In this document: piece by piece, positions 5,660 through 8,608 of the stretch | How the letters are laid out: each line of letters opens with the position of its first letter | Position numbering within the stretch: the stretch's first letter is position 1 | Origin: a virus | Lineage: Duplodnaviria; Heunggongvirae; Uroviricota; Caudoviricetes | Reading direction: 5' to 3' (one strand) | Virus record (IMG/VR): IMGVR_UViG_2563366972_000005 | Coordinates: 1 to 26,528 of that record | DNA: 26,528 bases | Notes under the pieces: model-generated | The model's database searches: none | The model's input: only the letters and a program-made list of their open reading frames with translations | Told to the model about the DNA's origin: nothing | Program-made: the position numbers and the translations under genes

Positions 5660-6298
5660 TTAAATATCTTGTTGAATTTTAAAGCATACGCCCAATATGC
5701 AAGATAGATCATCCAGCATAATTGAAGGGTAGCGAGGATTCGTGGGGACTAAAAGAATATCCGGCCCTTCTATCTCCAGTTTACGAATGACAGGTGTTGT
5801 GGTCCCTTTGGGTAAGGCAAGGACAATATTTCCTGGTTGTACGGTTCGATCGGGATCAACAAAAACTGTTGAACCATTTGGGATGGAAACTCCCCCACCA
5901 GATGTTGACATACTGTCACTCTCTAGAACAACTGCAAAGGTATTGGCCGGGATTTCTCCGACAAGCTGCACACAAGAGGTTATTGAGGAATTTTTCATAT
6001 AATCACTCCAGCTTGCTGCCTGCTGAAGTGATAGTAGCGGAACCGTTTTTATCGGCGGTAAAGATAGATCAAGCGAATCACCTGTATTTAACTCTCCTCC
6101 ATTAAGAAGCCAATTTTCGTTTACTTTCAATATCTTTGCCAGTGAACTTATGTAACGCGAGGACGGCGCTCCTCCACCGTTCATCCATTGACTTACGGAG
6201 CCTTTTGATGCGCCAGTGGCATTGACAAGGTCTTTGCCTTTCAGGTTTAGCGCATGCATACGTTGGGTTATGCGTTCAGATATTGTTTGCTTGCTCAT
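5660..6298 (-). CDS. CI-like repressor (N-terminal HTH plus C-terminal S24/LexA-like autopeptidase domain)
   Basis: 212 aa; N-terminal HTH-like segment (RMHALNLKGKDLVNATGASKGSVSQW) and C-terminal S24-like segment; divergently oriented from the cro-like gene. Confidence 0.88.
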   Translation of the reverse strand: MSKQTISERITQRMHALNLKGKDLVNATGASKGSVSQWMNGGGAPSSRYISSLAKILKVNENWLLNGGELNTGDSLDLSLPPIKTVPLLSLQQAASWSDYMKNSSITSCVQLVGEIPANTFAVVLESDSMSTSGGGVSIPNGSTVFVDPDRTVQPGNIVLALPKGTTTPVIRKLEIEGPDILLVPTNPRYPSIMLDDLSCILGVCFKIQQDI

Positions 6299-6389: not shown

Positions 6390-6620
6390 ATGAAAAAATC
6401 AGAAGTATTAGGCTATTTTGGCGGAGTTGTTAAAACAGCCGCAGCTCTAGGAACGTCAAAAACCACAGTCAGCATGTGGGGGGAAGAGGTTCCGTGGAAA
6501 TGGGCGTTGCTAATTCAGGCAGTCACTGCTGGGGCGCTCAAATATGAGTTACACATACCGACGGTTGTCATTCCCGGTTCTGATCATAATCCGCCTTCTA
6601 ACCAAGGGGGGGATTCATGA
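6390..6620 (+). CDS. Cro/YdaS-like small HTH regulator
   Basis: 76 aa from ATG at 6390 (GGAG 5 nt upstream); HTH-like segment VVKTAAALGTSKTTVSMW; first gene rightward of the repressor; stop overlaps next start (ATGA). Confidence 0.72.
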   Translation: MKKSEVLGYFGGVVKTAAALGTSKTTVSMWGEEVPWKWALLIQAVTAGALKYELHIPTVVIPGSDHNPPSNQGGDS

Positions 6621-7042
6621 AAATCAAGCATGAACACATCCGCATGGCGATGAATGCCTGGGCGCGTCCTGATGGCGAAAAAGTTCCAGCAGCTGGAATA
6701 ACCCAGGCTTATTTTGAGTTGGGTATGACGTTTCCTGAACTGTATGACGACAGCCATCCGGAAGCCCTGGCTCGCAATACCCAGAAAATTTTCCGCTGGG
6801 TAGAGAAAGACACCCCTGATGCAGTTGAAAAAATTCAGGCGTTGTTACCAGCGATCGAAAAGGCAATGCCACCTTTGCTGGTGGCCAGAATGCGCAGCCA
6901 CAGTTCAGCTTATTTTCGGGACCTGGTGGAGACGCGGGAGCGATTGGTGAGAGACGCTGATGATTTTGTCGCAGTGGCAATCGCCGGCTTCAATCAGATG
7001 AACCGTGGTGGTCCGGCAGGAAATGCTGTGGCGGTACATTGA
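6617..7042 (+). CDS. YdaT-like protein (CII-like functional equivalent in Rac/CP-933P-type immunity regions)
   Basis: 141 aa starting MKIKHEHI, matching the YdaT N-terminus as I remember it; position directly after the cro/ydaS-like gene; strong AAGGGGGGG Shine-Dalgarno. Confidence 0.65.
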   Translation: MKIKHEHIRMAMNAWARPDGEKVPAAGITQAYFELGMTFPELYDDSHPEALARNTQKIFRWVEKDTPDAVEKIQALLPAIEKAMPPLLVARMRSHSSAYFRDLVETRERLVRDADDFVAVAIAGFNQMNRGGPAGNAVAVH

Positions 7043-7113: not shown

Positions 7114-8154
7114 ATGGCCAACGCCTGGCTCAGATTATGGCATGACATGCCAAATGACCCTAAGTGGCGAACAATTTCAAGGGTGTCAGGACAGCCGATT
7201 GCAACAGTGATGGCGGTGTATATCCACCTTCTGGTTAGCGCGTCACGAAATGTCACGACATGTCACGGCGTGTCACTACGGGGTCACATTGATGTCACGA
7301 CGGAAGATTTAGCAAGTGCGCTTGATGTGACGGAAGACGTAATTGATTCAATTTTGCAAGCAATGCAGGGGCGGGTGCTTGATGGAGATTTAATCACTGG
7401 ATGGGAAAAACGCCAGGTACTGAAAGAGGACAACGGTAACGTTTCTCAAACCGCGAAATCCCCGGCAGAGCGCAAGAGAGCGCAGCGTGAGAGGGAAAAA
7501 TTACGAAAACAGAATGAGGAATGTCACGACGAGTCACGCATATGTCACGACATGTCACGACGAGTCACGACAGATACAGATACAGATAAAGAATTAAACC
7601 CCACACATAGCGCGCGCGTGCGCGAGATCGCTCCGACCAGTGAGTCGAATGGCGCGCCGTTGCAGGCAGCGGAACCTGATTACCTGGAAGGTCTGAGCGA
7701 ACCCATCGGAAAATTTCCGATGACCGACGGCTGGAATCCGTCGCCCGATTTCCGACAACGGGCTGCACTGTGGGGAGTGGCTCTGCCGGAGCCGGAATTT
7801 ACACCTGCTGAACTTGCCGCCTTCCGGGACTACTGGGCAGCGGAGGGGAAAGTTTTCACGCAGGTTCAGTGGGAGCAGAAATTCGCCCGTCACGTAAATC
7901 ACGTCAGGGCGCAGGTTAAACCAGTCAGCAAGGGGGTGAGCCATGCAGCAACGCCAGGTGGCACCGCATCACGGGCAGTTCAGGAAATTCGGGCAGCACG
8001 TGAGCAGTGGGAACGTGAAAACGGATTTATCAGCGACGGAAACGGCGTGGAAGCTGTGGGAACTCATGGGGGAGGTTTATTCGAACCGCTGGACTCAGAA
8101 GAACGGGGCCGCACCTTCGAAGCTCTGGATTGCACAGATTGGCGCGATGACTGA
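7114..8154 (+). CDS. Replication initiation protein, O-like, with embedded iteron origin
   Basis: 347 aa from ATG 7114 (GAGG 5 nt upstream); two clusters of 10-bp-phased GTCACG iterons inside the coding sequence; immediately upstream of a lambda-P-like gene. Confidence 0.7.
   Translation: MANAWLRLWHDMPNDPKWRTISRVSGQPIATVMAVYIHLLVSASRNVTTCHGVSLRGHIDVTTEDLASALDVTEDVIDSILQAMQGRVLDGDLITGWEKRQVLKEDNGNVSQTAKSPAERKRAQREREKLRKQNEECHDESRICHDMSRRVTTDTDTDKELNPTHSARVREIAPTSESNGAPLQAAEPDYLEGLSEPIGKFPMTDGWNPSPDFRQRAALWGVALPEPEFTPAELAAFRDYWAAEGKVFTQVQWEQKFARHVNHVRAQVKPVSKGVSHAATPGGTASRAVQEIRAAREQWERENGFISDGNGVEAVGTHGGGLFEPLDSEERGRTFEALDCTDWRDD
7241..7300. repeat. Iteron cluster 1: six GTCAC(G) repeats at ~10-11 bp spacing inside the O-like gene
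   Basis: Direct repeats cGTCACGaaa tGTCACGaca tGTCACGgcg tGTCACtacg ggGTCACatt gatGTCACGa read from sequence. Confidence 0.7.
7521..7600. repeat. Iteron cluster 2 (five (T/A)GTCACGAC repeats) followed by a CAGATA x3 tandem and an AT-rich tract; putative origin of replication
   Basis: Repeats at 7523, 7533, 7544, 7554, 7564 with 10-11 bp phasing, then cagatacagatacagataaagaattaaacc; mirrors the lambda ori architecture (iterons plus AT-rich region inside O). Confidence 0.65.
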
Positions 8155-8608
8155 GCAGCAAATCCGGCAGGTCTGCCGCCAGTGCATGGAGCGTTGTCGG
8201 GCGGGTGAAACATGGCCTCCTGACCTGGCAGAGTTTGTGGCGTTGATTTCGGAAAGTGGGGCAAATCCGTTTGGTTTGACTGTGGATGCCGTGATGGAGG
8301 AGTACCGCCGCTGGCGCAACGAGTCCTGGCGATACGACGGAAGCGATAAATACCCGTGGTCTCAGCCTGTGCTGTATCACATTTGCCTCGAGATGCGTTC
8401 AAAGGGGATTGAGCGCCAGATGACCGAAGGGGAGTTAAAACGACTTGCAGAACGGCAACTGGCGAAATGGGCAAAGCATGTTGGTGACGGCTTCAGTGTT
8501 CCGCCCGTACGGCGGCAACTGGCTGCACCAGAACGCCCGTCGGGGCCAACTCCAATTGAGTTGCTGAAACAGGAATATGAACGCCGGAAAGCGGCTGGGT
8601 TTGTTTGA
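7943..8608 (+). CDS. Replication protein P-like (DnaB helicase loader)
   Basis: 221 aa; segments ...[12 protein letters not shown]... and ...[17 protein letters not shown]... parallel lambda P (...LPSPGQFVAWC..., ...ESYPWKSNAHYWL...); AGGGGG Shine-Dalgarno 6 nt before ATG 7943. Start uncertain: in-frame ATGs also at 8066 and 8147. Confidence 0.75.

Follow-up and report, generated by a model that had tools for sequence, protein, structure and literature searches.

The stretch of DNA analysed here (the window) comprises 26,528 nucleotides (nt) of the IMG/VR virus record IMGVR_UViG_2563366972_000005 (Caudoviricetes), and carries a Rac-like lambdoid replication region of an Escherichia coli prophage. 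This region holds two replication genes on the + strand. The first (7114–8154) encodes a lambda O-like initiator of 346 amino acids (aa) from ATG 7114, as judged from the list of open reading frames (ORFs), Pfam and the start of RefSeq homologues, which are named 'DnaT-like ssDNA-binding domain-containing protein / phage replisome organizer'; its ORF opens at GTG 7108 (348 aa), ATG 7114 is preceded by GAGGTGAGT and corresponds to the RefSeq start, and from these features the 346-aa protein is the more likely. The second (7943–8608) encodes a helicase loader of the lambda P family (P), 221 aa at full length according to Pfam, homologues of 212–225 aa, an AlphaFold2 (AF2) model and Foldseek. As the initial annotation had described, the two ORFs share 212 nt (7943–8154) out of frame, the P frame being the initiator frame +1, and the same bases serve as the last 70 codons of the initiator and the first 70 of the loader. 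The ORFs, related loci, and stop and resampling tests all bear on this two-frame region, which very probably represents a real, selectively maintained, same-strand overlap in a lambda-like replication module.

The Shine-Dalgarno (SD) sequence of the P gene, AAGGGGGTGA (7930–7939, + strand), is situated within the initiator coding sequence, 3 nt 5' of ATG 7943, and an in-frame TGA (7937–7939) bounds the P ORF one codon before that ATG. The initiator would be read through to the TGA at 8152–8154, which is made of the third base of the P Thr70 codon and the GA of Glu71, while P would be started internally at 7943. Two further Met codons of P are found inside the overlap, Met42 (8066–8068) and Met69 (8147–8149). 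The overlap can be divided into two parts, both on the + strand. In part A (7946–8044) a conserved helix and a Gly-rich linker of the initiator lie over the variable, predicted-disordered N-terminus of P (aa 2–34), and in part B (8045–8152) conserved helices of P (aa 35–70) lie over the predicted-disordered acidic end of the initiator.

The assignment of both proteins is supported by domain searches and models. In the initiator, Pfam detected DnaT PF17948 at aa 203–269 of the 348-aa first ORF (E=1.8e-18; 7714–7914, + strand), a DNA-binding domain modelled by AF2 at a predicted local distance difference test score (pLDDT) of about 90; the NCBIfam DnaT match spans aa 194–271 only. The Pfam scan returned no match to Phage_rep_O PF04492, and the protein would work like an O from outside that family. 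Beyond the confident DnaT domain, the C-terminal tail of about 65 aa was modelled as a single low-confidence helix followed by a disordered acidic end (aa 306–346, pLDDT <50); its sequence comprises an amphipathic helix, a linker rich in Gly and, last, an acidic stretch (EPLDxEER...LDxxDWxDD). In the second ORF, Phage_lambda_P PF06992 was matched at aa 56–188 (E=2e-16, 60.7 bits against a cut-off of 26), and the lambda P chains 8v9t and 8v9s were also matched directly, although weakly. The AF2 model of P (mean pLDDT 75.7) is disordered at aa 1–27 (pLDDT <50), and its helices run from 26 to 181, with a break and a last helix at 204–217; helices 26–46, 48–54 and 60–68 score 83–86. The top Foldseek hits of this model were lambda P in its DnaB complex 9oa1 (probability 1.0, 193–220 columns). 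Lambda P consists of a disordered N-terminal lasso (domain I, aa 1–29), two compact domains and a C-terminal lasso (PMC12661323); in the model, P of the window has the same four-part architecture, and its aa 2–34 are equivalent to domain I. The initial annotation had held that the N-terminal 68 residues were needed to reach the length of lambda P, and the match of the model to full-length lambda P agrees with this.

To place the overlap in a wider context, related loci were collected. Scanning one genome per species yielded 38 loci in about 20 genera (P identities of 44–91%), to which the window and six annotated records were added to make 45; 34 non-redundant loci, corresponding to 16 lineages below 70% nt identity in the overlap, were used for the tests below. 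Of the 45, 41 have an ATG 149–227 nt upstream of the initiator stop, with GGAGG, GGGGG or GAGG before it and the upstream gene always in the −1 frame relative to P, and this architecture spans Escherichia to Serratia, Pectobacterium, Yersinia and Erwinia. The initiator stop falls +56 to +59 nt from the KNG motif of P in most loci (full range +20 to +92). The four exceptions were a frameshifted copy (L040), a pseudogene (L044) and two orphan P genes beside non-phage genes (L032 and L041). In L040, from Leclercia adecarboxylata, an apparent frameshift interrupts P upstream of the conserved SNRW motif, and in L044, from Symbiopectobacterium, P carries an in-frame stop; both look like decaying copies. 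The orphans, at 2992–3618 of L032 near a TtcA-like gene (as read from the sequence) and at 2974–3543 of L041 near a PTS-transporter-like ORF, are probably remnants of decayed Rac-like prophages.

Closer and more distant relatives were obtained from viruses. The first IMG/VR scan yielded close E. coli relatives only, and served for a check of single-nucleotide polymorphisms (SNPs) and not for diversity; 78 of these 79 relatives (L049–L128) have an overlap of exactly 212 nt, and the remaining one has apparently lost its initiator stop, that frame continuing for 428 nt after the P start. A second IMG/VR scan, with a Vibrio query, gave a single locus. Four Vibrio-phage loci, whose loaders are about 28% identical to that of the window and share only the N-terminal domain with it, display the same frame offset, an overlap of 194–230 nt and the same tail pattern.

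The position at which P starts was examined through its SD sequence and its conservation. The strong SD that had been noted before ATG 7943 was borne out, with a predicted anti-SD duplex of −11.8 kcal/mol that lies beyond the 1st percentile of all positions in these genes (−10.0). Across the 34 loci the median for the duplex at this far ATG was −10.25 kcal/mol, that of the background being −2.7, and in 29 of them it fell below the 5th percentile. GGAGG or GGGGG is kept 5–9 nt upstream of the far ATG in diverged loci; P thereby has a conserved independent start signal inside the upstream gene, as dual coding calls for. An alignment of homologues 45–80% identical (Enterobacter, Klebsiella, Citrobacter, Pectobacterium, Serratia, Salmonella and others), a check which the initial annotation had proposed, revealed that P residues 35–68, all of them encoded upstream of 8147, are among the most conserved of the protein (AWxLWExMxEIYSNRWTxKNGxxPSxLWIAQIG, aa 35–70), with W39, W50, K53, N54, G55, P58 and W62 invariant. 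A start at 8147 would lose domain I and three helices, and one at 8066 would truncate the first helix. Orphan P genes without an upstream initiator also begin before the Met42 equivalent. Taken together, these comparisons identify ATG 7943, served by its own strong SD inside the initiator gene, as the start of P.

Both frames were found to be kept open across the whole range of loci. Outside the overlap, as measured in the non-overlapping part of the other gene, stop codons occur at a density of 4.3% per codon in the P frame and 5.2% in the initiator frame; inside it there are none in either frame in all 41 intact loci. When synonymous codons were resampled with the other protein held fixed, the initiator frame remained open in a median of 3.7% of cases per locus and the P frame in 27%, values that are not simply to be multiplied across lineages which share ancestry. 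All 34 non-redundant loci keep both frames open, the pattern expected of dual coding, and at such divergence this is not inertia.

Codon-position periodicity, the second check that had been put forward, gave an initiator-frame pattern in part A and a P-frame pattern in part B. In part A, pairwise variation was highest at initiator codon position 3 (P position 2), at 0.58, and lowest at initiator position 2, at 0.44 (Wilcoxon p=2e-4), and amino-acid divergence was 0.76 for P versus 0.55–0.62 for the initiator. Part A therefore evolves as initiator coding sequence while the P N-terminus is free to vary, and such variability is expected of a disordered lasso. In part B, variation at the three P codon positions was 0.33/0.26/0.50 (position 3 above position 2, p=2e-5), and initiator synonymous diversity fell from 0.53 to 0.15 (p=5e-11). 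Signs of the initiator frame are also present there at single sites: the invariant P Lys53 is encoded by AAG in 31 of 34 loci versus a background of 39% (p=3e-9), and P codons 43, 47 and 52 have G as third base in 26–28 of 34, which gives the initiator Gly or Glu, and not Arg, Lys or a stop. SNPs among the 79 close relatives show the same selection bias. These patterns show purifying selection in both frames, on the initiator in part A and on P in part B. The two frames divide the constraint between them: where one protein is structured or conserved, the other is variable and disordered.

Several observations weigh against a functional overlap of this kind. As P aa 2–34 display no constraint at the amino-acid level, with variation peaking at P codon position 2, translation of that segment is indicated by the conserved SD and ATG and the open frame alone. 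RefSeq annotates a different P start, and in several lineages a moderate SD precedes Met42 (down to −9.6 kcal/mol), such that a second, shorter P isoform might be made from it. In part B, P-synonymous diversity was 0.53 compared to 0.57 in the P-only part, a difference that was not significant (p=0.20), and this test was replaced by the open-frame resampling and the site-specific codon counts; selection on the initiator frame there is limited to few sites, and the conserved P sequence imposes much of the conservation of that frame. In three lineages the initiator ends 33–36 nt sooner than in most. Finally, the model of the tail is of low confidence (pLDDT 40–63), and the proposed binding of tail to loader is suggested by co-occurrence only.

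Two of these points lend themselves to the alternative that P starts at ATG 8066 (Met42, 180 aa, with an overlap of 89 nt), or that 8066 and 8147 give rise to a shorter second isoform. Met42 is an ATG in 31 of 34 loci, RefSeq uses it in Citrobacter, Klebsiella and Salmonella homologues (180–181 aa), and it has both the SD-like sequence in some lineages and the unconserved aa 2–34 in its favour. In three lineages, however, the codon is CTG, and the mean SD at Met42 (−6.2 kcal/mol) is much weaker than the conserved one at the far ATG. W36, L38, W39 and E40, which precede it, are kept by P-frame selection at positions where the initiator residues vary among V, L and M; Met42 itself falls in the middle of the predicted helix 26–46, and the orphan P genes begin upstream of this point. 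We regard this alternative as unlikely.

It is also conceivable that the initiator tail is a translated but functionless read-through, and that only P matters in the overlap. In part B, P largely determines the initiator frame, and overall P-synonymous diversity is close to normal; most of the tail is predicted to be disordered, and the three early-stopping lineages would fit as well. Nevertheless, with the P protein as given, a random choice of synonymous codons would interrupt the initiator frame in about 96% of cases per locus, and none of the 16 lineages is closed; part A evolves as initiator coding sequence; the preference for AAG at K53 and for G as third base of P codons 43, 47 and 52 maintains Glu and Gly in the initiator; and the tail motif is kept as far as the Vibrio phages, whose P is about 28% identical. 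A functionless tail is accordingly very improbable.

A start of P at ATG 8147 (Met69, 153 aa), with ATGACTGA as its coupling to the initiator stop and the upstream P-frame ORF as a chance by-product of the initiator tail, is if anything slightly less probable still. It is what both the Prokaryotic Genome Annotation Pipeline (PGAP) used by RefSeq for E. coli and the authors of Rac-SA53 have annotated, with an 8-nt ATGACTGA overlap; at least 1000 contigs have the 153-aa form on record, and ATGA-type coupling is lambda's own arrangement. The codon, however, is not conserved, being TTC, TGC, CTG or CTC in 10 of 34 loci, and no SD precedes it (the mean of −2.6 kcal/mol is that of the background). 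The PF06992 match begins 13 aa upstream of it, and residues 35–68, which are conserved and helical in the model, would be dropped. Least credible of all is a joining of the two frames by programmed ribosomal frameshifting into an initiator–P fusion or P–initiator hybrid: the frames do overlap by 212 nt on one strand and phages use frameshifting elsewhere, as in lambda G/GT, but no X XXY YYZ slippery heptamer was found in any frame within 7900–8160, on which ground a frameshift site was rejected as a candidate, and the conserved SD and ATG account for P expression without one, RNA folding around the P start (7895–7995) being non-significant (z=0.66) and revealing no structure that would mask it. 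Of the three options left by the initial annotation, the true overlap has therefore stood, and the later P start (8066 or 8147) and the unused initiator tail have not.

Public records do not agree on where P begins. Besides the 153-aa form of RefSeq and Rac-SA53, PPompW records place the start later still (140 aa); annotations in other genera give 180–181 aa (the Met42 equivalent), 187–192 aa or 212–225 aa, RefSeq itself choosing 180–181 aa or, in Symbiopectobacterium, 215 aa, and the 221-aa form is present in some GenBank records (P0002/P0003). Varied PGAP starts were recorded for the RefSeq homologues (L003–L006; proteins P0023, P0025, P0026, P0031 and P0044). The choice follows whichever internal Met makes the overlap smallest, and the overlap is 'resolved' in at least four mutually inconsistent ways across the database. 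No NCBIfam model matches the P protein, so that no curated family model open to inspection lies behind the RefSeq start. The loader gene being started too late is a widespread annotation error: some part of the 1.7-kb two-gene region is matched in 3238 of 5426 complete E. coli genomes, 658 of which carry at least 80% of it. As annotated in RefSeq the loader is shortened by 40–68 residues, and cloning the annotated ORF would lose the three conserved helices (aa 26–68) and the N-terminal lasso.

The tail of the initiator behaves as a module. Over the P start, a common tail of about 65 residues (S.A.QQIRAARE.WER ... G..G ... L.EPLD.EE[RW] ... LD..DW.D[DE]) is fused to at least five unrelated initiator bodies, namely Phage_rep_O PF04492 (L022), HTH_36/DnaD_N (L023), DUF1376 (L025 and L026), DnaT-like (the window and L011) and unclassified ones, several tail-bearing initiators matching nothing in Pfam. 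When the tail profile was compared to lambda O, nothing matched except a pre-tail FWxxNxLxPxKLRDKW motif from initiators of the L023/L043 type, and the tail itself has no counterpart in lambda O; a search of the PDB with this profile returned nothing significant. Tail-less DnaT-type initiators (P0163, P0185) end in ...LDWNNTDWIEG... and are followed, with an overlap of 4–29 nt, by a P-family protein of 258–260 aa whose N-terminal half is 39% identical to lambda P and which shares only aa 82–221 with P of the window. Lambda O ends in ...LDLTNTDWIYGVDL and phi80 gp15 in ...LDFNNTDWAYGVIR, both before P proteins with lambda-type N-termini and with a 4-nt overlap. Lambda, phi80 and tail-less DnaT-type initiators hence all end in LDxxNTDWxxG(V) and are paired with lambda-type P N-termini at overlaps of 4–29 nt.

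A short LDxx(N)xDW-like motif is seen at the C-terminus of both types of initiator (LDLTNTDW in lambda, LDFNNTDW in phi80, LDCTDW in the window and LDNGDW in Vibrio), and may have arisen by coincidence or represent a functional peptide common to both; in initiators of the window type, the P sequence LWIAQIG determines part of it.

The type of tail was found to co-vary with the type of P N-terminal module in lambda, phi80, L129–L132 and more than 40 tail-type loci. The pairing holds in phi80 despite the window-type C-terminal half of its loader. Gp14 of phi80 (L134, 1298–1987) is itself a mosaic, with a lambda-type N-terminal half and a C-terminal half 49% identical to P of the window, indicating that P-family loaders recombine near residue 90–110. 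The Vibrio-phage loaders are the reverse case, with the tail overlap but only the N-terminal domain in common with P of the window. The initiator C-terminus and the N-terminal ~80 residues of the loader therefore change together, independently of the initiator body and of the loader C-terminal half, which is what would be expected if the two segments contact each other. This agrees with the speculation of others that the N-terminal lasso of lambda P (aa 1–29) engages lambda O (PMC12661323).

The genes around the pair are those of a lambdoid replication region: a cI-like repressor (5660–6298, − strand; ORF list and Pfam), a small cro-like ORF, a YdaT-like gene (6617–7042; ORF list and Pfam), the initiator, the P-family ORF and a DUF1627 (ydaW-like) gene. 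Close relatives are found in Rac-SA53, in thousands of E. coli chromosomes and in the 'PPompW' prophages of Stx-converting strains, and an O157:H7 strain has a copy of the module that is 88% identical. If the DUF1627 ORF is opened at ATG 8577, it overlaps the last 32 nt of P; its RefSeq homologues begin at the counterpart of ATG 8643, after GGGAGGAAATTTTA, and the overlap at 8577 is probably not real. Inside the initiator's own gene, as for lambda O, there are two clusters of (A/G)TGTCACG(A/G)C repeats with 10-bp phasing, about 270 bp apart, one at 7240–7300 and one at 7521–7571, the latter followed by ACAGAT repeats (7570–7592). On sequence grounds both are probably origin iterons, predicted to serve as binding sites for the initiator. 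In the initiator frame the TGTCACG repeats read as an odd Cys/His/Asp-rich peptide (..CHDESRICHDMSRRVTT..).

A mosaic junction is located in the initiator gene at 7575–7593, where megablast hits split: different phage sets match the N-terminal domain and iterons on its left and the DnaT domain, tail and P on its right. The ACAGAT repeat (7570–7593) encodes TDTDTDKE at the point where similarity changes phage set, and D/T/K-rich linkers occupy the same place in other initiators (DTDTDTDTDTDKELKDK in L025, KDKD..KELNPTH in others); the site may be a recombination hotspot or a flexible linker.

One possible scenario is that the tail acts as an adaptor by which the origin-bound initiator recruits the loader or the loader–DnaB complex, and that the N-terminal module of the loader would be its partner. 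With both encoded in the same DNA, recombination could not separate the partners, and origin-binding domains might be swapped without parting a tail from its matching loader. Swapping of origin domains is seen at ~7575–7593 and, across genera, in the at least five initiator bodies. We consider it about an even question, judging from sequences, whether co-encoding indeed prevents mismatched partners from arising by recombination. Somewhat more tentative is a broader version, in which the ~210 bp would form an 'interface cassette' that holds both contact surfaces of initiator and loader in two frames, has been transferred undivided between at least five unrelated families of initiators and joined to two different loader C-terminal halves, in prophages of Enterobacterales and in Vibrio phages, and keeps the partners matched. 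An additional consequence may be that ribosomes on the initiator cross the P initiation site, which might modulate P synthesis or the ratio of P to initiator.

To our knowledge, gene overlaps that exceed 150 nt and bear signs of selection in both frames are rare in double-stranded DNA phages and in bacteria. The one described here has been kept from Escherichia to Vibrio phages, in the classic pairing of ordered over disordered protein, and it suggests how mosaic phages keep interacting proteins matched. For the recruitment of the P–DnaB complex by lambda-type initiators, co-variation points to two short segments, initiator aa ~284–348 and P aa 1–80. Lambda O's C-terminal domain was invisible in cryo-electron microscopy work of 2025 (PMC12661323).

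Several known systems can be compared to the window. Lambda O/P and phi80 gp15/gp14 have the same gene order, iterons inside the initiator gene, and an initiator which is likewise a mosaic, its N-terminal part being specific for the origin and its C-terminal part probably for the loader; the loader of the window shares PF06992 and its fold with lambda P. The differences lie at the junction and in the modules next to it. Lambda and phi80 overlap by 4 nt (ATGA), and the window by 212 nt in two frames. The body of the window's initiator is of the DnaT type without a Phage_rep_O match, in contrast to lambda O, which also has no counterpart of the ~65-aa tail, and the N-terminal ~80 aa of P are a different module, BLAST against a lambda-like P aligning only aa 82–221. 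The ydaU–ydaV–ydaW region of Rac in E. coli K-12 offers the same neighbourhood (dicA/dicC-like regulators, a ydaT-like gene, an initiator, a second replication gene and the DUF1627 gene ydaW). However, the second gene of K-12-type Rac, ydaV, is annotated as a DnaC-like ATP-binding protein and not as a member of the P family, and only the ydaW end matches the window.

An overlap between interacting proteins is familiar from the Rz/Rz1 spanins of lambda, two envelope proteins encoded in different frames of the same DNA, with Rz1 wholly embedded in Rz. As in the window, this is a same-strand +1 lambdoid overlap whose products bind, or in our case are proposed to bind, and whose co-encoding would block separation by recombination; in the window, though, the proteins are replication proteins that overlap at their termini only, with binding as a proposal. 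VdhL1 and VdhL2, virus-derived helicase loaders of Vibrionaceae with a conserved upstream lambda-O-like gene, are, like the loader of the window, remote relatives of lambda P that travel with an upstream initiator-like gene (PMC11087808). The word overlap does not occur in that paper (count 0). The Vibrio-phage relatives have the same arrangement of tail over N-terminus as the window, the loci compared being those of phages. Our literature searches found no description of this initiator/loader overlap; what is new here is a long, conserved dual-coding junction, by which the window and its relatives differ from every described relative of the lambda replication module.

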